Below are positions 10,708-48,997 of a stretch of DNA of 64,000 bases, in pieces. The notes beneath the pieces are model-generated. The model did no database searches and was not told the origin of the DNA. It saw nothing but the letters and a program-made list of their open reading frames with translations. Positions within the stretch are counted from its first letter, which is position 1. Every line of letters begins with the position of its first letter. A program made the translations under genes and the position numbers. The stretch covers positions 7,130,001-7,194,000 of the forward strand of contig NC_081332.1 of NCBI RefSeq assembly GCF_022539665.2, given 5' to 3'. Origin of the DNA: Daphnia carinata (Eukaryota).

Positions 10708-10714
10708 ATTATTG

Positions 10715-22955: not shown

Positions 22956-25146
22956 AAATCGAACAAATGAAACCATTCATTGACATGACTAGTGTTGCGC
23001 AGTGTACAAAAATTCAGATGGCGACCGAAGAATCGCAGGAAAACAAAAATGGGGAGCCGGAAAATGAAGCATCTGCAAATTCTCCAGAACAAGAAAAATC
23101 AGAAGAAGCAGATGCAAGGCCCTCAAATGAGAATGAAACGCCGCCAGAAACGGCAGAAACAGACATTGAAGATCCAATTCTACCGCCAACAAGACAAGAA
23201 AACGTACAAGTAGCAAGAGCAGAAAACGCAGGCGTACGAAGATCTGCTTGCATAGCGGGAAGGAGAACAGTAATGTTAACCTTACCTCTGTTGCTACTGC
23301 TTTCCGTATTTTCAGGACCACCGACCTCAAAAGAAATACTCGCCAATCAAGGCGTAATCTTCAAATCAGAAGGAGAGATAGCCTTTTCAGACTCTGAGTG
23401 GGTAGTCGTCACCGACTTCACATTCAATCCTTTAGAGACCGTCATTAAAACTCTACAGGATGTAGTAGGAAGAAAGGTCAATACCCTGAACTTCCGATAC
23501 GAAGGCCCAAACGAAGGATTTAAAAAACGAATTAAAGAAGAGGTCGAGGAACGAGCACGAGCAGAATTGAAAAACCTGAAAAAGAGTCAGGAAAGACTTA
23601 GAGAACTAAAACAAGCAGTAAATGTAGGCAGTACCCGTACGAAAAGAGGCCTAATCGACGGAGGAGGAAAAGTTCTCAATTGGCTCTTTGGAGTGTCCAC
23701 TGAAGAAGATTTAGAACACATAAACAATCGTGTGGAGAAGTTATCAACAGAGACCACTAACATTGTTCACGCAATGGAAGTCCACGCTTCATTAATCAAC
23801 GCGACGCTTTGGGAGACAAAAGCAACATCAAACGCCGTCGAAGAACTACAAAACGCATTTGAAAAATTGGAACGTGAAGCATGGAAAACAGATCACAAAA
23901 TAGATGGAATTACCCAAGAAGTGGAAAATCACGAAATAGCCAGAGCAGCCATTGAAAACACCTTTCGTGAAATCAAGTCAGCCTTAGCTTGGCTGGATGA
24001 AGCAATTGAAGATTTTGCCATCGGCCTAGCAACAATGGCAATGGAACGTTTACCGGCAATGCGTTTCCCAAGAAATAAAGGCAATTTTGCCTTCTGGATG
24101 GTCATTGAGCCCCTCAATTCAAACAGGAGACACCTGGCAAGTTTATAAAGATGCAAACGTAGCAGTGGCAGCAATAGAAGACAATCTAAGAATTTTCATT
24201 CACTTACCTGTGTTCGAATTCCCATTTGGATTCACACTGTGCGAAGTGATAAGTTTACCAAGACCAACTAAAAATGCCACCCAAGGGGCAAGGGGCACAA
24301 TTCCATCCGTTACCAGCATTCTTGGCAGTGGGAAACGATAGACAAGCGTTTGTCGAATTGTCAACACACGAAGTGCATCGCTGCATGATGTCAACAACAT
24401 CAATTTGCCCTAACAGTAGAGCAATAAATAAAAGACACAGAGAACCAAGCTTCGCAATGGCACTGTTTTTAAAAGATGAAAAAAGAAGCCGCTTACAATG
24501 CACTACAAAACTATCTCCGTGTAACGGCCAGCAAACTGTATACCTGGAACACCGAAGATGGGGTTACTCCACTGCACAAGAAATGACAATAAAAATAACT
24601 TGTCCGAGCAGCAGAGGAAAAACAAACACAGAGATCAAACCTGAACCTTTCGATGTGTTTGAAGTGCCAGCAACATGTACGACGTACACAGAAGACTGGA
24701 TTTTTCAAGCAAGCTTCAAAAAGAACGTAAAACATACGTAAAACAACGTCACACTACCGCCGCTGTTCGAATTGGAAAATACTGACCTCATTCCACAAGA
24801 CTATGAAACGCGGGATATGGATACGCAAGAGCCCGAAAAAAGAAAATGGAAAAATAGGCCTCAAGCAATCAGCAAGGCCACAACACAAAGCCGCGTTACC
24901 CTTATGGGGGAACATTTACGGAAAATAGAAGAAGAAAAAGAAAGAAAGAACGCCGAACGAACTACCAACGTCCGGTATCCCTTCGAAATTATCGCTGCTA
25001 TAGCCACACTGTTTCTCAGCTTGGCAATAGCACTATTCCTCAGCAGACGACAAAACAAAATCGTTCTGTCAAATCTGACTGAACGAGTAAATGAACTCGA
25101 AAGTCAACTAAAAAGACACGAAGAGGAAGTTGAAGAGCAGCTGTAA
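22955..25146 (+). pseudogene. env: env, class I fusion protein of baculovirus-F/errantivirus type, contiguous with integrase tail
   Basis: Signal-like MLTLPLLLLLSVFSG, furin site RTKR (23636-23647), fusion peptide GLIDGGGKVLNWLFG, heptad-rich helices, Cys-rich segment, TM IIAAIATLFLSLAIALFL. Frameshifts near 24070-24290 and a stop at 24741. Confidence 0.85.
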
Positions 25147-25468
25147 AACGTTCTTCATACGTCATCAATTTTTTTTCCTCTTTTTGATTTTTAAACTAAA
25201 TTTTCCTATTTCATTCGAAGTTTCTCTATAATATAGGTATAGGAAAATTGAAACAAAGAAAAATGTTTCTTTTAATATAGAATTAGAAATTCTACTGTTA
25301 GAAATGTTCTTTTTGAAAACCTTTTCTCAAAAACGTATGTTTAGACTAAATGTTTAAAATGTTCCAAATGTTTTCAGACGACAGTTCTCAGACTGCTATT
25401 CGTCCCGATTGCAAAAATTTTTGAAAAAATTTTTGCAATCGGGACGAATAGCACTCTGAGATGGGGGA

Positions 25469-25861
25469 TGTAACGCACAGCACACGTAGGGTTATGCAAC
25501 CTATAGAACTTATCTCGTGGTTAACTCTCGAGAGTTAGATAAACTAGTGATTATTAAATGTTACAGGAAAGTTATCACCCAATTACTTAAATCCCCAGAA
25601 CAGGAGAAAACGCCCAACGATGGTATAAAAGAAGGCCACTCGGCTGGATCGGGGTTCCTTCCGTCTTAGTTATTCTTATGTGTTAAAGTTGTAAAAACCT
25701 TATTTCCCTTACTCTTAGCTATTCTGTAGTCAATTATCTTTGATTTCTAAATGGCTCTGACGTCGATCGTCCGTTACAATATGCTAGCAGACAACATTCA
25801 GTCAACCTAACTTCGTCATAGTGAACGTGCTCCCTGCGAACCCTACGTGCAACGTCAAACA
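25469..25861 (+). repeat. Gypsy-F 3' LTR (right end approximate)
   Basis: TG start after PPT, TATA box ggtataaaa near 25622, subterminal inverted pair cacgtagggtt/aaccctacgtg, CA end at 25861. An alternative end is cgttaca at 25778. Confidence 0.62.
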
Positions 25862-26009
25862 TGGCTGAAAATCCATTACCATCCGCAGCATCAGTGAAAG
25901 AAAACTTTAAGTAAGTCGGGATAGGGGGGAGGAGTGTGCGACCAACCTCAAAGAAACGGTGGACAACTTGTTGAGTGCCAAAAAAGGAAATCGTGGATAA
26001 AGTGTACCC

Positions 26010-26510
26010 TTGCCAGCGGGCCTCCTAGACATCGACAAGGAAATAGCAAAATATTCTGAAGATCTAGTCAACGTACACGTTCACTTCCGAGCCGAGCGAG
26101 AGACCTTGATGAGCAAATACATCGGGTCTCTTTTACGCAAAGTTCGGGAGATGGAACCTGGTGCTCCGCCACCCACGCCAGTCGTCACTCTCAGTCGTCC
26201 ATCGTTCGTCGCCCCGCTACATACGCCTAACATCCCGTGTTTTCTAAAATCACACGTGTCGGGACCGAATCCCTGCAAAAGGATGATCACGGAGTATGAG
26301 GATTTTATGCTCCTCACGAACCAGGATAGGCTAGAACTTCTCTTCGCCCAGCGACGGTGTTTTGGGTGTTTTGTCCCAACCGCCGTCGCTGGGCACACCA
26401 AGATTGCTGATTGTACCCATCCCAGACGTTGCACGTTGTGCAAAACACAAGATCACCATTAGATCTTGTGTGCACCGAAAAAGGCGTACAACAATCTTCC
26501 CACTCATTGA
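26010..26510 (+). CDS. BEL-2 extra 3' ORF with Gag-like Cys/His zinc knuckles
   Basis: LTNQDRLELLFAQRRCFGC...GH...C...CTLC...HH resembles the BEL Gag C-terminal knuckles. In-frame TAG at 26460-26462. Confidence 0.6.
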
Positions 26511-26639
26511 GGATGGCCCTTCATTACAAGTGTTTCGTTGCCGAGTGAAGACTTCACGTTTTGTTCCTTTGTTGTTTGTAATACGTTGGAAGTTATCTTT
26601 TTCTTTGTTTTATGCACCTGTTGTCACGGTGGGTCCCGC

Positions 26640-26999
26640 TGTCACCTACGGTACTGCCCTCGCGGGCAGGGCTGTAGGGGGCACGGGCCCGCAAGTGTAG
26701 TGACCCCTTGTTTGTTCTCTTTTGCCCCCTTTTTTGTGGGAAGGGGTAGTCGTAATTCAGTAACCGTCCAGTATTGTATAAGTAGTCAACCTAAACAAGT
26801 TGTCTTTGTCTTGTCCCATTTTTCCACATCGCTTGTCTCAGTTTTGTTTCCGTTTTTCTCAAATCAAGTGTCTTTGTCCCAAGAAACATAGCGTTCTTTT
26901 TTTTATCATCTCTCATGTCCATTTTCACTCACCCTCTTCAGTTATCACTCATCCCTCATTCTTTCTCTGTTACGACTCTTTTGCACGGAGTCGGTAACA
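26640..26999 (+). repeat. BEL-2 3' LTR
   Basis: gggtcccgc|TGTCACC...GGTAACA, followed by TSD ATGAG. Confidence 0.93.
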
Positions 27000-27190
27000 A
27001 TGAGATTGAAAGGAAAAGATCAAATTGTATGATATTACACCAAAATAAAATTAATCGATTATGTGGTAAAGTAGGTTTGAAATGTTGTTGGATATTGATG
27101 ACTGCAATAATTGGATTGTCAACACTTACCACTACTGGAATGTCTTCACGATTCAAAAGATAAGAAAAGCAGGCATTGTGATATAATAAG

Positions 27191-27917
27191 TGTAACGAAT
27201 CGTCTAGCGAAGCCCCTTCTTACCTTCTTTCTCAATAGACTAGAACCTCATACCTGTAGCCCCTTGTTACTCAGAGCCTTCATTTACTAACCTAGTTGTA
27301 AACTCCCTTAAGAATATAAAAATAATGAAGACATGTCTGGGCACGCTGGCTAAAAATAGATTTATTTCGGTTGGTCCGAGATTGCCCGAAATGGCCTAAA
27401 ACCGCCCGACCGATTTCAAGCTATCGTCCAAATTCGTTCGATACCGCCCGAATTTGCCCGCCTATACCTCTTCATTGCGCCCAAAATCGCCCGATATCGC
27501 CGCCTATCCGTTAACACTGTCCCGTAGACTCACACGGTCGATGGCTAACATATAAGAAGCCATCGACAACTCACAGTAGTTAGTCGATCCTGGAAACACT
27601 ATCTCGTGTAGACCTTCAGCGCCCTTCCGAGCCGCTACCTCATCCTCTCCAGCTGAAGCGTAAGTCTTCTCTTAATAATATTCGCTACTTGTCTTAGCTA
27701 TCCATTGGTCGTGTAAGCCAAGTAACATACGCCACTGGAGGCCCTTGCCTTCGATCTGTTCAATCTATTGACTACTTGTAATCTCTTAATACACGTTATT
27801 CTATCGTACACGTATTGTCTTACGCTTATTTGTACACGACATTGTGAGTAGCAGCGCCGCGTTTAGTTGTATTTTCAGTATTGGAGGCAACATGACAACG
27901 TCGTGTCCTCCTCTACA
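27191..27917 (+). repeat. Gypsy-A 5' LTR
   Basis: TGTAACG...CTCTACA. TATA box near 27551. GTAAGT at 27660. Confidence 0.96.
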
Positions 27918-27919
27918 TC

Positions 27920-27932
27920 TGGTGGCAGCGGT
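27920..27932 (+). promoter_or_regulatory. PBS complementary to the tRNA-Leu 3' end
   Basis: TGGTGGCAGCGGT two nt after the LTR, the reverse complement of ...ACCGCTGCCACCA. The same PBS core is at 42677. Confidence 0.85.
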
Positions 27933-29916
27933 TTTTGAACTCACTTACAATGTCGTTGTATACAGGTGCTAAGCCTAAGACAAAACGTACCTTTTTAAAA
28001 AAAACTAGCAAATCTGATGACACTTCTACAGAAATTTTTGATAACCCCAATTCCACAAACGAATTAACTCAGTCTGTCACTTATATGACCTTCGACCCCT
28101 TACCCTTTCGGAAAAGATCTACCCGTTCTACACTCAATTACGCACCATTGAACCAAGTAGATAACCCAGAGGCTATTTTACGATCCAAGCGGATACGCGT
28201 TCAGGACACCGATAGCACAAACCTGTCTCTCTCAGTAGAAAAGATTGCTAACTTTTCACCAAAAAAATCGCCGACGAAACAGTCTGATTTATCAATAAGT
28301 CGTGAAATTCTACACGGAGAGTACATGGAGATAGAGACCATAGCTACCGAATTAAGCCCTATTCTCCCGGCAACACAGACCGCCCTTATTCCTGAATCAC
28401 TTAGCATAAGCGAACCCCCCAAAATCTGTCTAGTAATTGGCGAAGAAGACCAAACACAACTCAACGTCCCGACAAATAATTCGGTTTTAGAAGAAATCGA
28501 ACCGGTCAATAAGATCAGCATAGAAAATAACGAAACCATCATATCCCATCACGATTTGGTAGACAATCACACCACAGAAAAAAACGAACGAAACTATTAG
28601 TGAAAACCTAACAAAAAACACAATATCCGACACTCCACACCCTTCCCCTACAGCTTCCGATTCATTCTTTGAGTTAGTCGATCGCCTCTCAGGTCACCTC
28701 CACATTGCACCACCAAATACCGACACCAACACCCCACCGACAAATATTCCATCACACACGCTCAACTCAACCATAGAAGTCATTAACAACCCCATACCTT
28801 TTGTACCTTACGTCGGTATCGACGACATCCTTGCGGCTCTAAGCCAACACAGCAACGCTATTGGCGGAGACAAAGAGAGCAACGATATCATAGAATTCCC
28901 CCTAAAAACCGAACCAACGCATGGAAAAGTGGATAATCACCACAAGAATCGTGACGTTACACAACCAATACGCCCATACACTTCGGCAGGAATTACTACG
29001 TATACGGCCGGCATACCCGCAAGCCAGTGTAATAATCACCTATATAACAACGACACTAGAGGAAAAACCATCTGAACAACAAATTCACTCCCTGCGACAG
29101 GCCATTTTGCGTGCACATCTAGAGATTTGCGACCAACACTCCCACTTTCCACTTCCACCTCACTTTTTCGACCTATTACACAAACTAGTCGAACTCGTAG
29201 GGAAGACGAAAATTACGGAAGTCCAACAAACCGCAAAACAGGCAGTGAACGATCTGACAGTCCTTTTGTGTGCATTTGTGACGGCTGCCTTAACCGAAAC
29301 CAAGTCTGTCCTGCACTTCATCAAAACAACGGATCATTCGTGCAAACAGCACAAGCATTCACAGAAGTGCTCCAGAAGCAAGCACAGCCCAAGCGCACGA
29401 CACACCAGGGAATTCACTTTCTTATACGGCCAATCAAAAACCTTGCAACGATTCTAAACACAAAGTAGCAGATAGCAATTACGCTATTCTGTACCAGAAT
29501 CAGCCAACTGATCAAACCACTGCTAGACCTCAGCCGCGTTACAGTTCTCTCGCCGTCATTGAAGGCCAAAGTTCAGCTTCTCGGAACCCAAATACAAACC
29601 AACAAGTTTATTACCCTCCACAAGAAATACAAAACCCTTACACACTCGGGATTGATACTAATCGAGCTCAGCCTCTAGTCCAAATCGACACACATACGTC
29701 GTATCCGACAGGAACGGACTTCAAGACAACCGAAGGAAATACAAAAACCTGAGGGCTCCACGGCGATCGCTCAACCCCCCCAATCGATCGAACACAAAGA
29801 GCATTCATTCAAGGGAAAAGAGACCTATAATTTCAATACCGAGAACAATCAAGAAATGGTTACACCGAAATACCCACCGAAAAACCGAACAACGAAAAGG
29901 CAGAGAAGCTATTACC

Positions 29917-31092
29917 ATGCTGAATCAACTCCAAAATTTTTCGGGGAGTACCGCCGTCCGCTTCGATCGTTGGATTAAACTTTTCGACAACGTCGTTGAC
30001 ATGTCCAACTGGGACAATTCCGAAATAATTAGCATGCTGTCAACTAAAATGTCAGGCGAAGCTTATGACTTATTACAAAATATCTTGGAATCCAGCGATA
30101 CTTACGAGTACGAAGACATAAAAAAACTCTTCCAAGAAAATTACCACGGTTCCGAAGACATCGATTTCTACCAAATCCAGTTCGACGAAATACAACGAAA
30201 ACCGAAAGAGAATATTTTAAATTACGCCTACAGACTGAAAACTCTCTATAAACGCGCTTATCCCTCCAATTACCAAGAAACGCCCGAAGAACAAACAACG
30301 CAACTAAGATTACTTAGGCAAAAATTCCTGCAAGGACTTGAAGCGGAACTACAAAACATCGTAAGACACAAAATGGTGTCCAGTTTTGAAGAGCTGGTGT
30401 CCATCACACAGAAATACGCAAAGCGCGTCCAGTCGGATATAATAGAAAAAGACAAACGGATATTTGTTAATGCAGTGACAAATACCCCAAATGATACAGC
30501 AATATTAAACGCAATCGAAAAACAAAGTGACCATATCAACTCAATCGCCTCTTGCCTGAAAATAGCCACCACGGAACCTACTCGACAAGAAACAAACATA
30601 TCGCCTGAATTGGACAACAAAATCGACCGCCTAACGGATGTCATTACGAATCTAGGCAACCTCATGCGCACGAACTTCCGACAAGAGAATGGAAACCATT
30701 ACCCAATAAGAAACAACCCCAATTATCCCCCTAAACAGGTCAACTTCTCAGACCCCGCCCCAAGTAACACTTTCACTTGCCAAGGCCAAATGAATGGGTT
30801 CCGTCAGCCTTTCACAAATACTTTCGGTAAACACAACGAAAACACCCCAGGTCAACAACCCTTCCAGCAAAACAGGTCGGCGCAAAACGCCGCAGGGTGT
30901 TCCAACTGCGGACTCACAAACCATAGCATTGAATCTTGCTTCCGATTCCTGAGGCAACAGACAACACCGGGAACGCCACCTACCTGTTATTTTTGCCAAC
31001 AGTTGGGGCATATAGCGAAATTTTGCCCCAATAAGAAAAACTTAATAAGGTCCAATGAAATTAAGGATGCTACGAATCAGGAAAACGAATAA
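29917..31092 (+). CDS. gag: Gypsy-A gag core (capsid plus two CCHC knuckles)
   Basis: FSGSTAVRFDRWIKLFD, ENILNYAYRL, CSNCGLTNHSIESC, CYFCQQLGHIAKFC. Confidence 0.9.
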   Translation: MLNQLQNFSGSTAVRFDRWIKLFDNVVDMSNWDNSEIISMLSTKMSGEAYDLLQNILESSDTYEYEDIKKLFQENYHGSEDIDFYQIQFDEIQRKPKENILNYAYRLKTLYKRAYPSNYQETPEEQTTQLRLLRQKFLQGLEAELQNIVRHKMVSSFEELVSITQKYAKRVQSDIIEKDKRIFVNAVTNTPNDTAILNAIEKQSDHINSIASCLKIATTEPTRQETNISPELDNKIDRLTDVITNLGNLMRTNFRQENGNHYPIRNNPNYPPKQVNFSDPAPSNTFTCQGQMNGFRQPFTNTFGKHNENTPGQQPFQQNRSAQNAAGCSNCGLTNHSIESCFRFLRQQTTPGTPPTCYFCQQLGHIAKFCPNKKNLIRSNEIKDATNQENE

Positions 31093-34000
31093 GGGCCGGC
31101 CTTAGAATAGGGTCGCCAGAGAATAGGTCAGTAAGCCCCGAACCATTATCATCAGTCGCAAAAATTACAGCATTCAGTAAATCAGCAGCCCCACGACTTT
31201 CCGTAAAGATTCACAATACTCCGTTTAAAGCATTATTCGATACTGGCGCGGCCAGGAGCCAATTACATATAGATATTTTTAATCAAATAACGTCGGAACA
31301 TCAACTAAGTTGCTCTGAGTCTGACGTAGAATTATACGATGTGCACAATAGGAAACTGTTCACATTAGGGATAGTCTCCCTACCTGTTGTTTACGGCGCC
31401 AATATACTAGACCAAGAATTTATTGTCACCAATGGTATTTCCGAAGCATGTATATTGGGTTTGGACGCCGCAGACAAACACGAGTTTATTTTTGATGGCC
31501 GTTCTAAAACAATATTCCTCGTCCGTGACAGACCAGAAAGTAAACTAGAAGTAAAACAAGAGGGTTTATTACCGAAGGGCCAAGAGCCAATAGTTAAAAG
31601 TACCATGACTTTAGTTAAAAGGGTCTTAATTGCACTCAGATCTTCTCAAGTCGTGAAAGCCACATTTCAGGAGACTGGTAATATTATGGACACCAGTCCT
31701 CTCTTTTTATTTTCCCAGAGTATGGATTCACCTGAAGGAATATTTATAGTCGATTTCGTAAATGCTAGGAACAGAAACGGAAGATATCAGATCGTTGTGG
31801 AAAATAAATCCAATAGGGCACATACTCTGCCGAGGGATAGTCCCCTAGGAGAGGTAGAACTTTCTTGTCAGCAATACTGCAATCTGCTATTGCAGATCGA
31901 ACTAGAAGAATCATCTAAAGAAAAAACTGCCTTTATCGTAGAAAATAACCTATACGAATTTGTTAGAATGCCTTTTGGATAATGTAATGCGCCGGTTACC
32001 TTCCAGCGATTAGTGAACCATATATTAAGATATGTTGCAGGTCAGAAAGCCCTAGTTTATTTAGATGACTTAATTATTTTTTCCGACTCCTTCGAAAGCC
32101 ATCTGAGCGACATTCGGGAAGTCTTCTCTTTAATTAAAAACGCAGGATTAAAATTAAAACTAAAGAAATGTCAATTCTTGAAACAAGCAGTAAATTATCT
32201 GGTGCATATCATTTCCACCGACGGTATCGGCCCGGGCCCAGACAAAATAGACAAAATAGCTAATTATAAAGTTCCAACGTCAGCCGAAGAAGTACGATCC
32301 TTTTCAGGATTAGCTGGGTATTATCGACGCTTTATCGAAAATTTCGGAGCTATTGCCCAACCATTAACCGCAAAAACCCATAAAAATGCATTAAACAGAT
32401 CCTTCGTCTGGTCGGATGACGATCAAAAGGCTTTCGAAAAACTGCGTACATTTTTAATCACTCCCCACTATTAGCATACCCTAACTTCGACCTCGAATTT
32501 TTATTGTTCACCGATGCCTGCGATTACGGAATCGGCTCTGTTCTTTCACAGATACAACACGGTGTAGAAAAACCCATAGCATACGCGAGTCGACAACTAA
32601 AACCGGCTGAACAAAAATACGCTACAGTAGAAAAAGAGGCATTAGCAGTTGTATTCTCTATTAAGCATTTCCGACACTACTTGCTAGATAAACCATTTAC
32701 GGTGATTAGCGATCACCGCCCTCTTCAATGGTTGGAAGAACAGAAAGACAACAACGGCAGATTAGGCCGTTGGGCTATTTTATTAGCCGGTACCAACTAC
32801 AACATTAAGTATCGGCCAGGACGCGTACACCAAAACGCCGATTGCCTGTCACGCCTTCGTGTCGCTCATATTCATATGGATAACGCAGAAATAGATATAG
32901 TAGCTAGCCAAACTACAGACCCATTATGTCAAGCAATAAGGAAATATCTAGACGACGGAGTCCTCTCCGACGAGGACGAAAAGAATATGCCAATCTGGGC
33001 AAAAGAAATTAGTTTCTACCAAGTTACAAATAGTGTACTTTACAGAATAGAAACATCAACGGCAAAAAGCCGGAGAAATATTCTGAACCCCCAGGTTATC
33101 CTGCCCCTTACGTTACGACGGGCAGTATTAAAACAAATGCACGACGAACCTATTTCAGGCCACCTCGCTTTCCTTAGAACCTATCTAAAAGTCAAAAATA
33201 ATTACTACTGGCCCACAATGAGAAAAGACATAAAAGAATATTGCTCTGCTTGCGAAATGTGTATTGCAAACACTAATTCTACACTGAGAGCCTTCCTTTT
33301 CCCCCACGAATTAGCTAAATTTCCATTCCAGATTATAGGAATAGACTTTTTGGGTCCGATCCAACCAATATCCCCTAATGGAAATAACTGTATTTGCGTA
33401 ATCACCGATTACTTCACGAAGTACGTCATCGCCGTTGCCCTACCCGACCAAACTGCCCGCACCACGGCCGAATGCGTGTATAAAAATGTTGTATTGACCC
33501 ACGGGGCCCCACTAGCTATCGTCTCTGATAGAGGACCGAATTTTACCTCCGGTCTATTTAAATACTTTTGTAAACAACTTAACATCGAACAAAGATTCAC
33601 TACGGCATATAACCCAGCAAGCAATGGGGAAACGGAAAGATTTAACCGAACCCTCACCACGATGCTAAGAAAAGAACTCGTAGATGGGCAACATCATAAT
33701 TGGGAAGATGTATTGGGAGAAATCTGTTTCGCATACCGCGCCTCCGTTCACTCCTCCACCAACGAGTCACCTTACTATATGATGCACAGCCGTGACTGTA
33801 ACATGCCTATAAACACAATTCTGGGAGCAACTTCTGAAGCCATACCCTCATCATGTGGTTACGTCGATACACTGCTCGAAAGACTACGATATAGCTTTCA
33901 CCGGACACGGGAAGAAAATGAAAGAGCCAGGGAACGCCAAAAGGAACAATACAACAAAAGGGCCAAAATATTTAATTACAGACCGGGAGATCGAGTCTTA

Positions 34001-34555
34001 TTAGATGTCCGGGTGGTGCAAAAAGGAGACAACAGGAAATTTACATCGAAATTTCGAGGCCCTTATCGCGTCGTCAAAGTGTACTCAAATCGCCCAGTGG
34101 ACATAGCAGACAATTCATATAACTGCCAACTAGTGCACAGTAATCGACTTAAACCGTTGTACGAGACAATGTTATGGACAGACGAACCCATGCCAGATAT
34201 CGAGCCTGCGGTCGAACCAAACGACCAATTTCGGAAACACATCGCTACTCAAACTTGTGTAGAGGAACAATTGGATAGTGAAAACAACTCCGACCAGGCT
34301 ATAGTGGAACGAAGTGATGTTACAAACACTATCGAACTAGAAAATAATGCGTCACAAAGTGAGGCTACATTAGTACCGCCGAATTCAACTGCGCCAAACC
34401 TAGATGATGTGATTCTCGAACACATGTGCAACACGTCCATTGCAACCCCGAATGGCAATTCCCACGGTTGCGTGCCAGGTCAACAATCAAACCAAGGACG
34501 CGTCTTATCTCGGAAATCTAAACAAAAAAAAAAAAAAAAAAAAAAAAAACAATAG
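31080..34555 (+). pseudogene. pol: Gypsy-A pol (PR, RT with N-terminal deletion, RNaseH, INT)
   Basis: ALFDTGA, YLDD, FTDACDYGIG, HHCC domain, IDFLGP, SDRGPNF, GPY. The N-terminal RT segment seen in Gypsy-B (46337-46705) is absent near 31880. Stop at 31982 and frameshift near 32470. Confidence 0.93.
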
Positions 34556-34799
34556 CGTAGAATAGGGCAGGCAATATAAAAACATTTACCCTTAAAACAA
34601 ATCAATAAACTAATAAAAAAAAAAAAAAAAAAGGGGGAGTGCGCAAGGAAGGACCATCGCGACTGTTTACAATCAGGTCAACACGCCCTAGCAAGTTCAT
34701 AAGCTCCCTGCTACGTTACAAGGGACGACAAGGAGTATTTAAGCAACTGCAAAACGACAACCAAACATCCACTTCACCTTCAACATCACCAGCAAGAAC

Positions 34800-35111
34800 A
34801 TGTCTGACAAATGGGAACCGCTCTCCGACGAGGATTGGAGCCTCATTGAGAATGTCTGGGCAAACGGAAGCCCCTGGAACAGCACCATTGACTTGGACGC
34901 TTCCTACGACACGGACGAAACGGCTAAGCTTCCAGACGACCGCTCCCCGTCCGAGAAGATAGGCCAGGGCCTCTCGGATGAAGATTTAGACGCCTACTTC
35001 TCGAACCCCGGCAGCCTGAACCATCTGGTCGAGAACGAGGCAGGGAACACTGACTGGGGGAAAATTTCTCGCCCTAGACCGCTATGTGGCCCGTCTGAAG
35101 AACGGCACTAG
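34800..35111 (+). CDS. Small acidic accessory ORF between pol and env
   Basis: 103-aa D/E/W-rich ORF with ATG in an A(-3) context, flanked by poly-A tracts. Coding status is inferred only. Confidence 0.4.
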   Translation: MSDKWEPLSDEDWSLIENVWANGSPWNSTIDLDASYDTDETAKLPDDRSPSEKIGQGLSDEDLDAYFSNPGSLNHLVENEAGNTDWGKISRPRPLCGPSEERH

Positions 35112-36423
35112 CACAAGGAAATGGACGCCGTTCGGCCTCCCTACCATGGAATGGCAACCCTACGGCTTCATCACGAAAGCGAAAAAAGCGACCGACGACA
35201 ACAAACTACGGTCAACCGGCCAAGGTTGGCTGCCCACCAAAATGGAGACAATTTTACTGATGTTTTGTGCAATCCTCTTTATTTTTGTATTGTTTTTCTT
35301 TAAGTAATAACAAATAAAAAAAAAAAAAAAAAAAAGAACCCTTAAACTTCTTTTCTACCCTTGGATTTATCATATATAAAAAAAAAGTAGTAACAATAAA
35401 GAAAGAAATGATTCAAAAAAACAAACAAACAAACAAACAAAGTAAAAAAAAAATAAACGAAAAAAAAAAATAATAACTAAACAACAAAAATAAATATATA
35501 ATAAACAAAACAAAATAACATAAAACAGTGCATATACGAACTCCTCCTACTTCATATGTATTCCTTTTTTTTCATGTGCCGAACATACGCCGCATGACGT
35601 ATGACGCGCCACCTATAGTTTCCTCGCCACACGCCATCTTCCAAAAACAGCATTGCCATGTCTCCCCAACCATTTTCTCGCATCCCTTTACTTTCAAAAA
35701 AAAAAAAAAAAAAAAAGAAGGGCAGCATTGCCATATCTGCCTGACCATTTCCGCGTACCCACCCTATTTTCCACAAACAGCATTGCCATGTCTCAACAAA
35801 CGGTTCCTCGCCCAATATATTCCCTCAGCAGCATTGCCATGTCTCTTCAAGCCTATTGTGATCCTCCTTTCCTTCTGATTTACAACGTTGCCGTTCCCTG
35901 GTTTTCCAATCCTAGTTTACGCCATTATTGGCCATTACTTAGCTACCTTTATTACCCTATTAGCGATCTTCAACAAAAAAAAAATTTTTCTTTTTTTTTT
36001 TAAGTGCAAGATACATAGAAATAAATTTTAATTCAAGCAAATATTACCAAAATACAACAACAACAAAAAAGTTTAAGGCCCAGTCGTCGGATACGGGTTT
36101 GTGGGGTTTGAACCCACGTCCAGCCTGCAGCATTTGCATGGCAGGCCACTGCGATGGTAAACGGCGACACTAAATGGCAGACCAATGCGGCAAACTACGA
36201 CTATGATAAGATTATGTTTAGTATTCGCAAAATCCCACAACTACAATTTATTCTACATACTATTAATAATATTTTGTCCCCGTACGTTCCTCCTTATCAT
36301 TCCCATACGAATATGTTAACCCCTTGATAATTATATTCCAAACAAACAAAAAAAAATGGAAAAGAAAAAGTACTGCCAGAAATATGGTAGTTAAACAAAA
36401 ATGTTTTTATGATTTCCCAGATC

Positions 36424-38133
36424 ATGCTGATCCCTATCGCGTTGACCCTCCTGCTCTCATCATCAAGAGCATTTCAAACCACAACATGCAACTGTAATAA
36501 CCCGACTGGAGTTGGACTTCTTCAGTTCTCCGACGGTCTTTGCGAGCCTGCCACACGCGTCTCACACACTAAAGTGGACTACCGAGTAATGACCGACAAA
36601 AAAGCAGCCTTTAACTTCCCAGGATATATCTGCGGCAGATGGAAATCAATCAAACACATCACGATCAATTTCGTGGGACAAGTCATAATCGTCCCGGAAC
36701 GCATCGTCATGGAAACAACAGCCGTAGAGTGCGATATCATGAGGCAGTCAAAAAGATTCAACGAGGGCCCAATGACCATATCAGAAAGCAAATGGGTATT
36801 CAACCAAGAGCCAGACGACGTAGGATATTGGCTAAGGACCACTACCGTGGTCACCATCAACTGCATGTTGGAGGAAGTTGTCCTCTCCCGCATCGATGAA
36901 GGGGACATAATCAATACTCCCTTAGGAAGAGCCAACGTGACGCATGGTTCCTTATCTCACAATCACCTCACCTTATTCTGGATCGACACATATGGAAAAG
37001 CAACCGACATCTCCCTCAGACAATTAGAAAAGGGTGTGGGATACTGTTACGAATCTTCAACAAACGGAACTTGGATTCTCCAAGATGACTCCAAACAACT
37101 AGACTTCCATGTACGACTGATGTCACGTTGTCAGTCTGTGAAGTGCGACAAAAAGATAGAAAGTTGGGCCGTAGTTGGAGACAACCATTTATTCGTCACC
37201 ACATACCCGTTGGGCCCAACTGCAGTCACCATGCCTTCAATCATCAAAAACACTACAACTAACATGAGCGACTCCCTAGACATCAACATCCGGCAAAACG
37301 CTAGAATCCAATATCTAGAAGATGCTGCCATCCGCCACGAAATCGAACTCGTCCGAATCGTCCAGAGCTTACAATGTGACCAGCGACGCACCTAACACGC
37401 ACAAACTGTATCAACTGCTCAATCTAATGGATGGTTGGCAGCCACACAACTGGGCCTCCGTCAGTGCGTGAAACTGATCGCTACCGGAAACATCGTCTCA
37501 GCCATCCAGTGTACTCCTACGACGGTCAATTTCACAACAGACACCACCATTTGTGGACCACAACCACGGTTCGGGAATTCTACCATCGGCCGATCCGGGT
37601 GGGAACTCACAGAGTTCACGTCATGCTACTGGGCTGGTGGAATCGTTAACTTTAACGATAAACCATATGCCTACCGCAATAACACGTGGCAACTGGCCGA
37701 ATCATCCGTCGTCGTACCGCAGCCTGATCTAGCCGACGCTTTCCGTTACCAAGATGTCGATTTCTTTGAGTACTAGCATCAAACCAACCCCGCATATACA
37801 GACACTCTGGTTAGCCCAATGGATGTGATGGCCGACATTACAGCAGCCATGAACGAACATTCGGGGACTGGACCAAATCTAAACACAGGAGCTTCCGCAA
37901 TCGTCATCTCAGCAGCCGAAAAAGCCGCTCTCGGCACCTTTACCAATTGGTTCGAGAATGTTAAAGTCTACTCGTTTATCATTTTACTTATCGCCGCCTT
38001 CCTTCTACTCGCTCGCGGCTGCTATGCCCTCGGATTTTGTGGGTTAATATGGAGATGTTGTTGTAAACCCCCACGCCCCCCCCCCCCTACAGCAGTTTAC
38101 CGACCGCAGAACAACCGCCCGAGAGAGCCCTAA
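36424..38133 (+). pseudogene. env: env-like type I membrane glycoprotein, class III fusogen-like; 570 codons, two in-frame stops
   Basis: ORFs 36409, 37435 and 37819 share one frame. Signal peptide MLIPIALTLLLSSSRA, many Cys and NxS/T sequons, TM SFIILLIAAFLLL, Cys/Pro tail. Confidence 0.85.
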
Positions 38134-38178
38134 ACTTCTTTTGGATTGTGGGACGCAATCTGGTATGACGGGGAGCGA

Positions 38179-38919
38179 TGTAACGAATCGTCTAGCGAAG
38201 CCCCTTCTTACCTTCTTTCTCAATAGACTAGAACCTCATACCTGTAGCCCCTTGTTACTCAGAGCCTTCATTTACTAACCTAGTTGTAAACTCACTTAAG
38301 AATATAAAAATAATGAAGACATGTCTGGGCACGCTGGCTAAAAATAGATTTATTTCGGTTGGTCCGAGATTGCCCGAAATGGCCTAAAACCGCCCGACCG
38401 ATTTCTAGCTATCGTCCAAATTCGTTCGATACCGCTCGAATTTGCCCGCCTATACCTCTTCATTGCGCCCAAAATCGCCCGATATCGCCCGATATCGCCG
38501 CCTATCCGTTAACACTGTCCCGTAGGACTCTCACGGTCGATGGCTAACATATAAGAAGCCATCGACAACTCACAGTAGTTAGTCGATCCTGGAAGAACTA
38601 TCTCGTGTAGACCTTCAGCGCCCTTCCGAGCCGCTACTCCATCCTTTCCAGCTGAAGCGTAAGTCTTCTCTTAATAATATTCGCTACTTGTCTTAGCTAT
38701 CCATTGGTCGTGTAAGCCAAGTAACTTGATACGCCACTGGAGGCCCTTGCCTTCGATCTGTTCAATCTATTGACTGCTTGTGGTCTCTTAATACACGTTA
38801 TTCTATCGTACACGTATTGTCTTACGCTTATTTGTACACGACATTGTGAGTAGCAGCGCCGCGTTTAGTTGTATTTTCAGTATTGGAGGCAACATGACAA
38901 CGTCGTGTCCTCCTCTACA
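38179..38919 (+). repeat. Gypsy-A 3' LTR
   Basis: Copy of 27191-27917 with a few substitutions and small indels plus a 10-bp duplication (cccgatatcg). Confidence 0.96.
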
Positions 38920-38923
38920 TAAG

Positions 38924-39728: not shown

Positions 39729-41943
39729 TCTATAACACTATATTCACATTGAATACACGTATATTTGATACTGTTTGAATGTAGATATTTGCACGATTCT
39801 ATAAAACTATATTCACGTTTAATACACGAATATTTGATGCTGTTTGAATGTAGATATTGAAACTCACTGTATCACACTATATTCACATTGAATACACGTA
39901 TATTTGATACTGTTTGAATTTAGATCATCAAACTGATTCTATAACACTATATTCTTATTAAATACACGTTTATTTGATGGTGTTTAAATGTAGATTTTGA
40001 AACTGATTCTACAACACTATATTAACGTTTAATACACGTATATTTGATGCTATTTGAATTTAGATCATGAAACTGATTCTATAACACTATATTCACATTG
40101 AATACACGTATATTTGATGCTGTTTGAATGTAGATATTGAAACTCACTGTATCACATTATAGTCACATTGAATACACGTATATTTGATGCTGTTTGAATG
40201 TAAATACTGAAACTCAATGTATCACACTACATTCACATCAAATGAATATGAAACTTTTTCCATAACACTATATTCACGGTTAATACACGTATATTTGATA
40301 CTGTTTGAATGTAGACCATGAAAATGATTCTATAACACTATATTCACATTTAATAGACGTATATTTGGTGCTGTTTGAAGGTATATATTGAAAATCACTG
40401 GATCACACTATATTCACATTGAATAGACGTACGTATATTTGATGCTGTTTGAATGTAGATCATGAAACTGATTCTATAACACTATATTCACTATAAATAC
40501 ACGAATATTTGATGGTGTTTGAATGTAGATATTGAAACTCACTGTGTCACACTATATTCACATTGAATAAGCGTATATTTTATGCTGTTTGAATGTAGAT
40601 ATTGAGACTGATTCTATAATACTATATTCATGTTTAATACACGTATATTTGAGGCTGTTGGAATGAAGATCATTAAACTGATTCTATAACACTATATACA
40701 TATTGAATATACGTATATTTCATGCTTTTTGAATATAGATCATGAAACTGATTCTATAACACTATATTCACATTGAATACACGTATATTTGATGCTGTTT
40801 GAATGTAGATATTGAAACTGATTCTATAACACTATATTCACATTGAATACACGTATATTTGATGCTGTTTGAATGTAGATATCGAAACTGATTCTATAAC
40901 ACTATATTCACATTGAATATACGTATATTTGATGATGTTTGAATGTAAATTTTGAAACTGATTCTATAACACTATATTCACATTGAATACACGTATATTT
41001 GATACTGTTTGAATATAGATATTGAAACTGATTCTATAACACTATATTCACGTTTAATACACGTATATTTGATCCTGTTTGAATGTAGATCATGAAACTG
41101 ATTCTATAACACTAAATACACATTGAATACAGGTATATTTGATGCGCCTTGAATGTAGATTATTAACTCACCGTATCGCACTATAGCCACATTCAATACA
41201 CGTATATTTGAAACTGTTTGAATGTAGATTATAAGACTGATTCTATAACACTATATTCACATTGCATACACGTAATTTGATGCTGTCTCAATGTAGATAT
41301 TAAAACTCACTGTATCACGCTATATTCACATTAAATACAAGTATATTTGCTACTCTTTGAATGTAGATCATGAAACACAGTCTATCAAACTATATATACA
41401 TTGAATACACGTATATTTGATGCTGTTTGAATGTAGATCATAAAACTCACCGTATCGCACTATAATCACATTGAATACACGTGTATTTGATGCCGTTTAA
41501 TGTCGATCAGGAATCTGATTCTATAACACTATATTTACATTGAATACACGTATATTTGATGTTGTTTGAATGTAGATATTGAAACTCACTGTATCACACT
41601 ATATTCACATTAAATACAAGTATATTTGCAACTCTTTGAATGGAGATCATGAAACTGATTCTATAAAACTATATACACATTGAATACACGTATATTTGAT
41701 GCTGTTTGAATGTATATATTGAAACTCACTGTATCAAACTATATTCACATTGAATACACGTATATTTGATACTGTTTGAATGCAGATCATGAAACTGATT
41801 CTATAACACTATATTCACATTGAGTACACGTATATTTGATACTGTTTTAATGTAGGATTTGAATTCATTGTGTCACACTATATTCACATTAAATACACGT
41901 ATATTTAAAACTATTTGAATGTAGCTCATGAAACTCATTCTAT
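39729..41943 (-). repeat. 70-bp satellite, reverse orientation, diverged
   Basis: ctataacactatattcacattgaatacacgtatatttgatgctgtttgaatgtagat is the reverse complement of the monomer. Confidence 0.97.
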
Positions 41944-44900
41944 TGTAATGAATCTGAATAAAATACTTACTTTTCTCGCTTTGCTTCAGTAGTACATGGA
42001 AGTCTGGAGATGGAAATTGCAACATCATGTACGCGGCACGGTTGACCTAGATGAACACCTGCAAGCTGATTCATGCAGACGTCATCAATATCGCGCCATA
42101 TTGAACACGTCTTTTAATTGTTTACCGCGGACAGCCTACAAGCTCCTTCCAATCACGCCACTTTTGCAATATGTAAAGTTCCGTGGATAACCCAGCATCT
42201 GAGGAGAAACCCCCAAGATCAGACTAGAACTTACAGTTGATTCCAGTAGTCGCCTAAAGGCATTTCGCTCGCTTTATTAGTAGTACTGTGCCTTACTTGA
42301 TGTTTTATGAACCAAGTCAGTTCAGTCGAACTCGTCTACATTTAGAATTATCTCCGACATTCAATTGCCTAGTCTTACCGATTTGAACTCTTGTTTGTGT
42401 AACGTTCGTATGAAAGCTGAGTTATCACGTTCGCTCCGTGTCGTTTTTCTTCTCGTTCTCTATACGTGTGATCACGGTAAGACCCAATTATCTTTGTCTC
42501 TTTAACTTGTTTCCCGAATGTTTCTTCTTCTTTGTTCTTTTCTCTTTTCAATTCTTATGTCTTAGCTTGAAATAATACATACATTATTGTGGGTAAAACG
42601 CCTCTGAGTTTAGTATATTTTTATTGTCTTAATTTCGTGAAGTCAGTCTTCCCCCATGGGAAGATGCTTTACATTATGGTGGCAGCGGCTTCTCGAACTC
42701 GACCACAATGATGAATGATGTTATTTCTGGCGGCCATAAGATTCCTCGAACTACTGTAAGCACCCCACTTGTTTCCCCAACGCCAGTGGTACAAATTGAC
42801 AACGAAACAGTTGCTAAGTTGATTGATTTTGACAAAGTATCAACTCGTGCTTTGTCCACGTCAGATAAGTTTCAGGGCTGTAAAACGTCAGAGGTAGAAA
42901 CCGAAGCCATTAAGAAATCCGCTTCTCCCGTTTTGAAACCTAAAGTGCAGACAGACAATACCCAGTTAAATAAATTAAGATCGAATCCTGCTTACGAAGA
43001 AGTGGCTCCATTTGTTAAGACCGCCACTAGGAAAATTTGGACCCGTGGTAAAGCTACTGCAGCAACTACTCAACGCCCACCATCTGTTTATGCTAGAATA
43101 GCTTCTCGTTTTTCTCCAGCAAAATACCCCGCGAAAAGCCCATCAAAAGCTCATTTTCTCTCGAGCACTCTTTTAAGCTTTTTCCAAAACAAGAGCCCAG
43201 TGAATGGACGATCACCTCAACTTGAGTCTCCATCACCTATACCAAGAAATCCAGAGCAACCCATCCAGGGTGTTCCCGACACCGTCGAGTGCAATACCAT
43301 CTCTGATACTAGCAATCAAGTGCCCCAAGGAGAGGGAGCTGGATTTCCAATCGCGCGATCCGAAACTCTGGGACCAATTGATCCGGCTATTAAACGATTT
43401 CGGGCTGAGGTGCCGACCCCAGGACAAACCGCAATTGCAGACGGACGTAGAAACACCGACGATATTCCTGAAATACTTAAGTGCGATTCAGGAAGTGAGG
43501 GCCAGTGGGCAGATCAAGAGGACAACGCGGAAGGCAAATCAACAAGCGTCGGAGCAGACGACGTCCTTTGCTACGTATGCGAGACAGTTTACGACGTTTC
43601 TGCTAGTACAGACGTACAGCGTAGCCGAAATGCAGACACAGTACCACCGAAGGAAAAGGACCTCCTCGGTTTTGTTCCCAGAGAGACGCCACTCAACAGC
43701 GAGGAGGAAGGACGATACAAGTTTCTCATCCTCGAAATATTAGAATTTTCGACCCGTTTGGAGGAAACTTTGTTGGACTTCCAGCTGGTACTTCTCACGA
43801 GCATACTAAACCTAGTCTCGTTCCTAAGAAAGCTACAATCCATAACCAGCCTGGAACCACTGCTACCGGAACTGATATCGCTCGAAATCAGATTGACCCA
43901 CTTCCGGAGAGTAACAAGGCCGTGCAACAAACAGCTATTGATCATCATCAAAGAAGTCCTCACCCAGACTACCAAACAATTGAGACAGTTGCTATCATCC
44001 ATTCGTGAAAACCAGGAAGAACTGCTGACGACTCTAGCTCGTCAGACATCTCCGCAGCCAAAAAACAAGCGCCAAACACGACCAATACGATTCCGAAACC
44101 GCCGATACAATTAACCGATAACAATATTGGCGCATCACAACCAATTTCGAACCGCATTCCAGTCACCGCGCAAACTCACCATCGCAGAGCTCCGATTTCC
44201 CCTGTAACCTTTTTGACCAACAACATGGCTTACGCTTACTCTCCTACCAGAGCAGCCACTGTGAATGATTTAATTTACAAAACAACCAGCATACCTTTTT
44301 ACGTTTGCAATTACTCCCTGCTTTTTCCGAGAGGCCCAATTTCTCGTTTTGATTCTTGGCTAGAATCGTTTGAGAGCATGGTTGATGGGGCACGATGGTC
44401 TGAAGGTAAAATTATTCAGATGCTACGTGCAAAATTTACGGATAAAACTTTTTCAGTCACACAAACCATACTCAAAAAACATCCATACGACTATAATTCC
44501 ATTAAAGAAGCTTTACTCGATCACATCCATGGGGATGAAAATGTTTATGTCTACATTAAGAAAACCAATAAAGCCAAACGTAAACCTGGAGAAAAGATTG
44601 TAGATTAAGCTCATCGTTTACAGTAAGTTTTCAAACGGGCATATCCTGGGGGTTATATGAAAAGGTCTTTTGCAGTCATTCTCATGCAGAAATTTATTGA
44701 GGGATTAGATTCGAAATAACAAGCTAAAGTCCGATATAAGGAATTTAAAGATTTTAGCGAACTCCTAGCAGCAATACGAGTTTATCCCGTTCGATTGGAA
44801 GCTTTAGAAACGGACCGCGAAAAGCATGAATTTGTTAGGGCAATTGACGATTCGTTTTGCACGAAAGACCCCAAGCTCAAAGAACTGAAGCAAATGCTAC

Positions 44901-47900
44901 TTGATGAGAAAGAAATTGTAAGCAATGCCGTTGCCAATATTCGCCATAGCCATAAGCAAGACGATAATCCAAAGTCAGAGAAAGATGAGATTATGGATGT
45001 TCTTCACGAACTCACTCAGGCTGTAAAACAACTACAACAGGACAAGAAAGATTATTCACCTACTCCACCAGGCACTCCCTATAGGAAACAAGTTTCATTC
45101 CAAGCAAATAACGTCAATCAAGATAGAAACTGAAGGCCTCCCCAGTATCGCCCGAATAATAGCTCTAATTCTTACGGATACCAACCTGCTCGATTTCTAA
45201 ATAGACCTGCGCCAGTTCCGTCTTCTTTCTGGAGGCCACCTAAAAATAATAATAATAATAGATCAGATCAACAGGTTGTAAATTGCAATTTTTGTGGTTA
45301 CCGCGGACACACTCAGTCCAATTGTCGTCAATCTCAGCGTCACAGTCTTGAACAGGCACAGCCTCCCATCTGCTATTCTTGTCGCGAGATTGGTCATCAA
45401 TCTAATAATTGTCCGAAATTCAGAAACTTTCAAAGACCTAACATTCCAGGTCGCCCTCAACGTCAGGGAAACCAATAGATATCAACTGTAGCTTCGGGTC
45501 AGTTGATAACGAGCCTCAATTTAAATCCCGACAAGTGGCAAAATTAACCACTATAACGAGTGAATCGACCCCAAGAATTCCATTAAAAATTTTTCAGATT
45601 CCGTTACAGGCATTATTTGATACAGGCGCGTCTAAAAGTTTTATTCATGAGAGATTATTTAACAAGTTACCCCAGAGAGGTCAGGCGATCTGCAGTCAGC
45701 TTGATTTCGATTTATATGATGTATGGGAGAAAAAGCTACATACTTTGGGAAGAGTTATTTTGCCCGTTCGATACGAAGAGTCAGTTTTTAAACAAGAATT
45801 TATTGTTACTAGTGGTGTTTCTGAAGACTGTATCCTTGGATGGGATGCAATCCAGAAGCACGGATTTCGGCTTGACGGAGAAGCCAGGAGCATTTATTTA
45901 GCAAGGGATGAGGTAGGAGGTACCGGGAGGAGGTACCGTACATGGCAGTTGCTACGGTAAAAAAGACGACGTTATTTCGTCAGACGTCGACAGTAATTGC
46001 AGCGCAGATGAAAGTTTCATTTCCGTATGTCCCCCCTAATACAGCATTTATATTTACCCCAGCAGACGATTTGCCAGCAGGCATTTAAATTGAAGAATTT
46101 ATTGGAAATGTACCGGGAGATGGAGCTTATAAAATTATGGTCGGAAATCATTTACTACATCAAAATCAAAATTCCTAGAAACACTACATTAGGCATAATT
46201 GAAATAATTGATAACGCTAAAATTTCTCTAACAAAATTGGAAGATAATCCTAAAGCAGAAGCTCAGCCATTTTATTTCAGAAGTCGACTCTGAAATTCAA
46301 GTATCGGTCTCAAAATTATTAGATAACTTCCACGACTTGTTCGCATCCAAAGATTCGGAAATAGGAAACACAAACCTTATTAAACACACGATTGATACAG
46401 AAGGACGAGGCCCCATTGAACAACGCCCATACAGAGTAACAAATAACCAAAGGAAATTATTAGACGATAAAATACAAGAAATGCTTGATGCAGATGTAAT
46501 TCAATATTCGCATTCTCCATGGGCTTCACCCGTGGTTTTAGTAGAAAAGAAGTGTGGAAAAGTAAGATTTTGCGTTGATTATAGGAAATTAAATAGTATA
46601 ACGAAAAAAGATTCATTCCCCATGCCTAGAATAGACGAAACATTGGACAAATTATATGGGACGAAATTTGTCACAACTCTCGATTTAGCTTCAGGCTATT
46701 GGTAGATTTAAATAGATTATCCAGCTATCGAAAAAACAGCGTTTGTGGTAGAGAACAATTTCTACGAATTTACATGTATTGCATTTGGCTTGTGCAATGC
46801 ACCTGCCATGTGCCAACGACTAATGAATTATGTACTGCAAGACGTTTTAGGAAGTAGAGCATTAGTTTATTTGGATGATGTTATAACCTTTTCAGACACT
46901 TTTGAAGATCATTTACGTGATATTCGGGAAATTTTTAATTTATTACGAAATGCTAATCTAAAATTAAAGCTCAAGAAAGGCCAGTTCATTAAACACAATT
47001 GTAATATCGACCGATGGTATTAAGCCTGATCCGAGCAAAATTGATAAAATAGTCAATTATGAAACACCTGTTTCAGTAGATGAAGTCAGGTTATTTCTTG
47101 GATTAGCTGGATATTACAGAAGATTTATTAAAGATTTCTGATCAATTGCTAAATCTTAGCTCGATTAACTCATAAAGATCTTAGCGGAAAACCTTTTAAT
47201 TGGGGAGCCGAGGAACAATTTCTTTTGAGAAATTGCGCAATTCTCTATTAACACCACAAGTTCTTACTTACCCCAATTTCAATGAGAAATTTATCCTTTT
47301 CACCGATGCATGCGATTATGGCATTGAAGCAGTCTTATCCCAAATTCAAAATGGCCACGAGCATCCTATTGCATACTCCAGTAGACAGTTAACAAAAGCA
47401 GAAACAAAGTACAGCACGACAGAAAAAGAAGCTCTAGCGGTTATTGGTGCAATCAAACATTTCAGGCATTACTTGTTGGATAAACCTTTTGAGATCATAA
47501 GTGATCATCAATCCCTTGCAGTGGCTTAAACATCAGAAAGATAATAATGGAAGATTAGGACGACTGAATTACTTTACCGGTACGTGCCACCATCTACCGA
47601 TAGCAAAAGAAACGTAACTAACCATTAGTTAGTCTTGCCTAAATCGTTACGCCAGTTAGTGCTCAAGGAACTGCATGACGCACCGATGGGTGGACATTTA
47701 GCCTTTTACAAAACTTATATGAAAGTCAAGAATCATTATTATTGGCCAAATATGAGAAAAGACATCAAAGAGTATTGTCAAGCTTGTGAGGTATGAATTG
47801 CCAACACTTCGTCAACTTATAGAGCATTATTGCACTCTCATGAAATTACAAAGGCACCTTTACAAGTTATCGGAAGGGACTTTTTAGGTCCTATTACTCC

Positions 47901-48997
47901 AGTTTCACCCAATGGAAACAGTTATATTTTAGTTATTACAAATTATTTTAGCCGAGTGGTGGAAACTGTTGTATATAACTGATGTGTATATAAAACAACT
48001 GGACATGGTATGCCTAAAGCTATTCTTTCTGATCGTGGAACCAATTTCACGTCGAAATTATTTCGTTATTTTTGTAAGAAATTAAAAATCGATCAAAGAC
48101 TAACAACTGCTATAATCCAGCTAGTAACGGAGAAAAAGAAAGGTGTAATCGAACATTGACAACTATGTTGAGAAAAGAATTAAAAGATGGTGAACATGCG
48201 AATTGGGAAGATATGCTGGATGATGTTTTATTTGCTTATCGTAATTCTGTCCATTATTCTACATTGGACACCAAATATTACTTATTGCACGGTAGAGATC
48301 CTAATATACCCATTAATGAATTCCTTGACGCTTCCACAAAAACATTTATCTCCGCATCAGATTATGTAGGTAACTTAACAGAACGCTTGCGTTATAGTTT
48401 CCAACGCGTCCGTGAGGAGAGTGAAAAAACAAGAAAACGTCAGAGGGAACAATATAATAAACGAGCAAATGAAAAACAATATTTAGTAGGAGATTGAGTA
48501 TTTTTAGACACTAGAGTATTTAAAGAGGGCGATAGTAGGAAATTTACTTCCAAATATAAAGGCCCTTATAGAGTTGTAAAAGTATATTCAAACAATACCG
48601 TTGATATTGCCGATAATTCATATATTTGCCAACGTACACACCTTAACCGGTTAAAGCCCCTGTTTGAAACAATTCATAGGAAAAACGAACCTTGTCCCCC
48701 TATCGAGACGCCATCGAAGTTCGAGAATCGATTCAGTATATCGATTTCGACCCAAACGATGGAAATTGCGGAAAATATGGAAGGGAACACGAGTGAATCG
48801 AAAAGTGTGGGATTAGAAACGATGGAAGCTGAAAACGTGGAAAAGGAAAAGAGGCAACCAGAAAGAGTGGATGTGGAAAATGCGGAATTTGAAACAGTGG
48901 AATCGGAACCGGTGGATATGTAAATGGACGCCGATCAAAACGATAAACAACATTTATGCTTTGAAAACGAAACTGGAGAGACATATGATTCAGACGG
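41944..48997 (+). mobile_element. Gypsy element (Gypsy-B), relative of Gypsy-A, 3'-truncated and degenerate
   Basis: 5' LTR TGTAATG...TTTACA (41944-42673), tRNA-Leu PBS 42677-42688, upstream ORF 42708-44114, gag about 44213-45478, pol 45466 to about 48900 (ALFDTGA, FCVDYRKLN, YLDD, FTDACDYGI, GPY). Many stops. Confidence 0.93.

Follow-up and report, generated by a model that had tools for sequence, protein, structure and literature searches.

The window, which is the whole stretch of 64,000 nt analyzed here, contains a Ty3/gypsy provirus with gag, pol and env at positions 27191-38919 (11.7 kb), all on the forward strand. The provirus is flanked by a TAAG target-site duplication (TSD; 27187-27190 on the left and 38920-38923 on the right) and bounded by LTRs with TG...CA ends, which span 727 bp at the 5′ end (27191-27917) and 741 bp at the 3′ end (38179-38919). 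The LTR pair is 1.7% apart, with 715 of 727 aligned bases identical and a K2P distance of 0.0167. The primer-binding site (PBS), TGGTGGCAGCGG, lies just 3′ of the 5′ LTR (27920-27931), and the same motif is present in five loci. A weak polypurine tract (PPT) precedes the 3′ LTR at 38167-38178. The LTR ends, TSD, PBS, weak PPT and the protease-RT-RNase H-integrase order of pol are the hallmarks of a Ty3/gypsy LTR retrotransposon.

The gag gene (29662-31092) encodes a capsid-like domain and a zinc knuckle (Pfam Retrotrans_gag, Ty3_capsid and zf-CCHC). It is preceded by low-complexity coding pieces in several frames (27950-29661), which probably represent an N-terminal gag extension broken by frameshifts; the related loci L013 and L014 carry a single long ORF at this place. 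The broken pol gene (31065-34555) contains a YLDD motif, a gypsy-type RNase H and an H2C2 integrase (PF17917, PF17919, PF17921 and PF00665), with approximately 100 residues from the end of RNase H to the HHCC histidine. A BEL/Pao host element was rejected because the Pfam domains in pol are of the gypsy type and no BEL/Pao families were matched. The integrase frame ends at 34555, leaving a pol-env gap of 1.87 kb before env starts at 36424. This spacer harbors a small acidic ORF of 103 codons (34800-35111). The spacer is A-rich, and a 38-bp repeat that starts CAGCATTGCCAT recurs there as four imperfect copies (35648-35866).

The env frame (36424-38133) comprises 570 codons including the final stop, i.e., 569 residue positions, and is interrupted within by two stops, one at codon 324 (37393) and the other at codon 451 (37774). 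One ectodomain cysteine is absent from the window env but is kept in all 22 other rows of the family alignment with a residue in that column. The pol gene is interrupted by a stop at 31980 and shifted in frame near 32470; from protease to YxDD it measures 273 codons compared with 414-422 in four of four relatives, so that approximately 145 codons are missing from RT. The pol genes of the relatives L013, L014, L017 and L019 are free of stops. The window copy is defective, given the stops in env and the deletion, stop and frameshift in pol, and, being dead, itself contributes nothing functional.

The sequence-only reading of this DNA had placed the 570-codon frame between pol and the PPT of a TSD-flanked Gypsy, and its coordinates agree with the LTRs and the TAAG on both sides. 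It had also described a signal peptide, N-glycosylation sequons, a C-terminal transmembrane (TM) segment and a CCC/Pro tail, and no furin-plus-GL fusion peptide. Consistent with this, env contains seven sequons, one hydrophobic stretch at approximately 509-542 that corresponds to the TM, a CCC/Pro tail and a signal peptide at approximately 1-16, the latter being judged by inspection of sequence and alignment and not by a dedicated predictor. No RxxR site occurs in the window env, and Rx[KR]R is found in 2 of 25 aligned members. The env ORF follows pol with its ectodomain between a signal peptide and a TM, which is one of the features of HSV/gB-type errantiviruses. An F-type envelope (baculovirus-like, class I) was rejected, as neither a furin site nor a fusion peptide was found and the predicted fold is class III.

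We modelled env with AlphaFold, using X at the stop codons and the 25-row alignment (pLDDT 73, pTM 0.39). In this model, a long beta hairpin region spans 49-156 and is accompanied by a PH-like sheet, a helix (283-322), a beta crown and a TM helix; confidence is good for domains I-IV and low for domain V and for residues 430-507. The predicted layout therein is a fusion domain (approximately 60-150) within a PH domain (approximately 44-268), followed by the central helix (283-322), the crown (approximately 340-425) and the TM (approximately 509-542). Two putative fusion loops are located at approximately 82-86 and 127-138, the second of which contains an invariant tryptophan. In the Foldseek search against PDB, the matches listed were all herpesvirus gB, with a best E-value of 5.8e-17 and 116 matches at E ≤0.001. 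In BFVD, an unnamed protein ranked first, followed by xinmo-, chu- and qin-related glycoproteins (E 1e-23 to 1e-20; 2e-21 and 4e-21 for the xinmo- and chu-related G), and rhabdo-like G and gB were intermixed lower down. All 13 chains with Z ≥5 in VIA-align are class III fusogens or pieces of them, among which are gB (Z 9.2), Chandipura G (Z 9.0), HCMV gB, thogotovirus GP, rabies G and GP64. The whole-chain TM-scores are 0.2-0.3 with rmsd above 20 Å, because the domain hinges differ.

When residues 44-268 were folded separately (pLDDT 84.5), the fusion domain superposed on Chandipura G (4d6w) with Z 8.7 and rmsd 3.3 Å over 120 residues, the flanking parts superposed on the HCMV gB PH domain with Z 7.2 and rmsd 3.4 Å over 81 residues, and BFVD again returned rhabdo-like and chu-like G. 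The sequence comparisons point to the same protein class at much greater distance. PF24664 (Monjiviricetes_fusion) was matched in 10 of 25 members and PF00974 (Rhabdo_glycop_FD) in 7 of 25, the window env itself scoring 21 bits against a curated cut-off of 27. The best ESM Atlas matches are glycoproteins of negative-strand RNA viruses, although the recognition value is low and we take them as a lead only. A sequence-only PDB search with env gave no matches, and the env profile against PDB sequences matched only VAMP2, through a TM helix. The assignment of env as a class III fusogen is solid at the level of the predicted structure. It bears out the earlier proposal of such a fold, for which gB and Chandipura G are the best solved matches, and in particular that of a VSV G-like two-loop fusion domain. 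The likeness of the later region to gB and chuvirus G, proposed from a helix-cysteine pattern, also fits the modelled helix and crown, and the motifs quoted at that time are conserved columns of the family alignment.

Compared with the solved structures, env resembles herpesvirus gB (HSV-1 2gum, HCMV 5cxf) in the PH-inserted fusion domain, the long central helix and the beta crown, with 366 residues aligned at 12% identity. However, env is shorter, and the gH/gL partners are not encoded in the element. The likeness to rhabdovirus G and chuvirus/xinmovirus G lies in the superposable two-loop fusion domain and in weak Pfam matches to both families; identities are 10-18%, and the match to vesiculovirus G is confined to the N-terminal half. 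The gag-pol-env layout is that of Drosophila gypsy and ZAM, whose F-type env is a class I, baculovirus-F-like protein with the furin site and fusion peptide that the window env lacks.

Homologues of env numbered 37 by protein search and 43 by profile, and those with a species name are all from Daphnia magna (up to 81% identity), D. pulex or D. sinensis, which points to Daphnia or a near relative as the likely host. A metagenome scan yielded 27 loci, nine of which carry pol upstream on the same strand as env (L003, L006, L013, L014, L016, L017, L019, L020 and L024); L015 resembles a permuted form of L014, and the remaining contigs have no pol match. The earlier proposal hinged on the presence of the ORF in other family copies, and these homologues and pol-linked loci provide it. 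The env frame was read in 18 of the 27 loci, the nine omitted being mostly partial matches, and no internal stop was found in 14 of the 18, two of which are cut by the contig end. dN/dS ranged from 0.031 to 0.082 in the four env pairs (of 11) with unsaturated dS, and the seven saturated pairs showed pN of 0.14-0.33 versus pS of 0.76-0.81. These results show that env is a stable gene of the element family under purifying selection. A chance ORF was rejected as a reading of the env frame.

In a rapid env tree with 30 rows, the window env groups next to two D. magna proteins and falls in a clade of 25 rows; the sister of this clade consists of five rows (L013, L014, L018, L019 and P0032) at approximately 30% identity. 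For the eight elements with enough pol for this comparison, the topology of the env tree is identical to that of the RNase H-integrase tree, with four of five inner branches starred in each. This agreement shows joint inheritance and not co-adaptation, since kin share history. A scan of viral contigs for env relatives gave 27 pattern matches but no true relative.

How env is expressed may be read from its upstream region. A candidate splice acceptor, a T-rich tract followed by CAG, is located 3 nt before the env ATG (36405-36420), and 10 of 13 elements have a YAG within 8 nt of the env ATG, where 1.0 would be expected, the elements being related and not independent. In the sister clade (L014, L015, L017, L018, L019 and L020), no in-frame ATG is present before the env signal peptide, which suggests that the start codon would be supplied by a spliced upstream exon. 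Because of these two features, env is probably expressed from a spliced RNA. The 5′ LTR carries a TATAA sequence and a putative GTAAGT donor-like site near 27660, and no such donor was found at a consistent place in the other LTRs. In Drosophila gypsy, env is translated from a spliced RNA.

A 7-bp hairpin with a GGA loop is located at 38144-38160, 18 nt 5′ of the 3′ LTR, and was found in 11 sequences (the window, L001, L003, L005, L006, L008, L009, L010, L013, L014 and L017). In the hairpin alignment, 98.7% of the cells pair, three of the seven pairs change on both sides, and the covariation score was reached by none of 500 shuffles. The hairpin is maintained by compensatory changes, and its position beside the weak PPT makes it possibly a signal for plus-strand priming. 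It was not found in L007, L016, L018 and L019 with a looser pattern, and Rfam gave nothing above the gathering scores within the element.

The acidic spacer ORF shares a 36-residue patch with the ORF at the same place in L003 (1830-2396), which is the nearest pol relative (E 1e-5, 0 of 2,000 shuffles), and this match ranks best among all six-frame locus translations. As it concerns one pair, we regard a shared spacer gene as a lead. Pfam gave no match to the ORF, database searches returned no homologue at E up to 1, tblastx of the window spacer against 11 other spacers gave nothing, and the spacer ORFs of L006 and L017 do not match it. Neither a hairpin nor a spacer ORF is described for such elements in the literature searched, which did not extend to most subscription journals or Repbase.

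Gypsy elements with envelopes of this type have been published. Chary and Hayashi (eLife 2026, PMC13524379) reported HSV/gB-type class III env on gypsy elements across animals, and, according to the available part of that article, such metazoan elements occur about as often as elements bearing an F-type env and their origin is argued to be ancient. The catalogue includes 15 HSV-type elements of Branchiopoda, from Daphnia and Ceriodaphnia, with the cysteine pattern C2c and a median identity of 27%. The notion that this is the first gypsy element with a class III env was therefore rejected. For the same reason, the independent env acquisition envisaged in the sequence-only reading is not supported. 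Nor is its possibly undescribed ERV-like lineage needed; two elements with the same PBS and, by eye, a homologous fusion domain are already catalogued. Among other sources, within the parts available, the 2010 survey of D. pulex LTR elements makes no mention of an envelope (PMC2996953), a review traces the Drosophila env to baculoviruses (PMC3383448), and no clear gypsy capture of chuvirus G is given by Dezordi 2023 (PMC10084718). Capture of chuvirus G is reported for the Anakin BEL/Pao elements (Dezordi et al. 2020, PMC7642597; PMC10084718), which resemble the window element in carrying a chuvirus-like class III glycoprotein but differ in pol, BEL/Pao versus Ty3/gypsy.

As far as the published sequences were available, the window element and the Branchiopoda C2c group are both cladoceran gag-pol-env gypsy elements with a class III env that has a signal peptide and a TM. 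Two catalogued elements, Dpul_errantivirus_3 and Cdub_errantivirus_6, have the same 12-nt Leu-type PBS as the window, and by eye their domain I-II shares the fusion-domain cysteines, the tryptophans and WLRT with the window env. Four fusion-domain cysteine columns are common to the window and the PMC13524379 sequences by eye, whereas the domain II cysteines differ: the window subfamily lacks the domain II CxxC of several published sequences and has its own cysteine pair near 236-241. Both published elements appear by eye to be closest to the sister clade (P0032, P0036 and L019), to which the window subfamily is approximately 30% identical, and none of the 15 published elements resembles the 25-row clade of the window by eye. 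The 1.9-kb spacer with a small ORF also sets the window subfamily apart from the nearest published elements, and a gap of about this size recurs in L003 and L006. The filter of that study for non-insects permitted a 1 kb pol-env gap, with manual extension in arthropods, so the 1.87-kb gap may be why the subfamily was missed. The catalogue judges intactness, not descent, by full-length RT and integrase in continuous ORFs, and these are not present in the window copy. The string 'splic' is absent from the main text of the article.

Taken together, we consider it highly probable (about 85%) that the locus is a defective Ty3/gypsy copy whose env is a predicted class III protein, likely of the branchiopod HSV/gB errantivirus group (PMC13524379), the link to the published elements being a comparison by eye and not a computed alignment or tree. 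The window element would at most represent a subfamily missing from a catalogue of a known kind. Its marks are the 1.9-kb spacer with the acidic ORF, the likely splice acceptor before env and the covarying hairpin, and it seems to be uncatalogued.

Class III proteins act as trimers that fuse membranes through two loops without cleavage. In working members of the family, env would likely be translated from the spliced RNA and placed in the membrane via its signal peptide and C-terminal helix, and env trimers may then be displayed on Gag particles. The two hydrophobic loops would insert into the target membrane and the protein would refold, with fusion expected to occur without furin cleavage. 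Particles may pass between cells in this way, and the most likely route is from soma to germ line, as in Drosophila gypsy; movement between cells is reported for Drosophila errantiviruses in the available part of PMC13524379.

The affinity of env to viral glycoproteins could also be explained by a capture from a chu-, xinmo- or rhabdo-like negative-strand RNA virus, separate from the gB-type errantiviruses. The best predicted-structure and language-model matches are indeed Monjiviricetes glycoproteins and not herpes gB, the species-named homologues are all from Daphnia, and by eye none of the 15 available published sequences falls in the 25-row clade. However, the viral matches are at 10-18% identity as opposed to approximately 30% for the sister clade (L013, L014, L018, L019 and P0032), which shares the PBS and pol ancestry and by eye resembles Cdub_6 and Dpul_3. 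Owing to these ties, a separate capture would have to take in elements already described, and we consider it improbable. We give still less credence to env being a passenger or a host-serving gene, e.g., one that blocks the entry of related viruses, instead of conferring infectivity on particles. PMC13524379, in the part available, itself gives the infectivity and entry mechanism of such env as unknown, and many annotated Daphnia homologues are partial; nevertheless, env is constant in its place behind pol, its tree tracks that of pol, and the strong purifying selection that it shows across many separate families of elements fits a gene used by the element.

The preferred reading, a defective member of the known branchiopod group, could also be extended, and such an extension is rather doubtful at present. 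The window element would then belong to a four-gene cladoceran errantivirus branch that was missed by the 2026 survey. Besides gag and pol, this branch would encode an acidic accessory protein and a class III env that is spliced, uncleaved and able to fuse membranes alone without gH/gL, and a conserved RNA hairpin would direct plus-strand priming; the env would lie nearer to chu-, xinmo- and rhabdovirus G than to herpes gB. If this were true, Daphnia would offer a laboratory system for studying infectious class III retroelements, as well as the flow of genes between retroelements and negative-strand RNA viruses. Using separate data, the analysis confirms that gypsy elements of water fleas carry class III envelopes as old, conserved genes, and adds a large env subfamily (25 of 30 tree rows) seemingly outside the 15 published branchiopod elements, as far as these were available. 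Daphnia is also an easy animal for examining the expression and particles of gB-type retroelements.

The window contains several other repeats. A second, broken gypsy element at 42633-48700 has pol DNA approximately 63% identical to that of the provirus and a full-length protease-to-RT distance but no env match, and no second env was found in the window by the env profile. Two nested or adjacent elements at 12300-26980 have ORFs that are BEL/Pao-like by eye; short repeats lie at 12294/26640 and 17428/26748, and more ORFs at 22922-26459. Two further elements (1074-6059 and 58628-61377) carry Copia-like ORFs by eye, the former having 246-bp end repeats and sitting inside a satellite array. AT-rich 70-bp satellite arrays in both orientations occupy 1-1074, 6059-11715, 39729-41943, 61507-62258 and 63736-63975, and the region looks like repeat-rich heterochromatin. 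Nested inverted repeats at 50637-57927 (50637-51003 with 57562-57927; 52695-53263 with 53893-55671; and 54132-55176) are possibly foldback or MITE elements.
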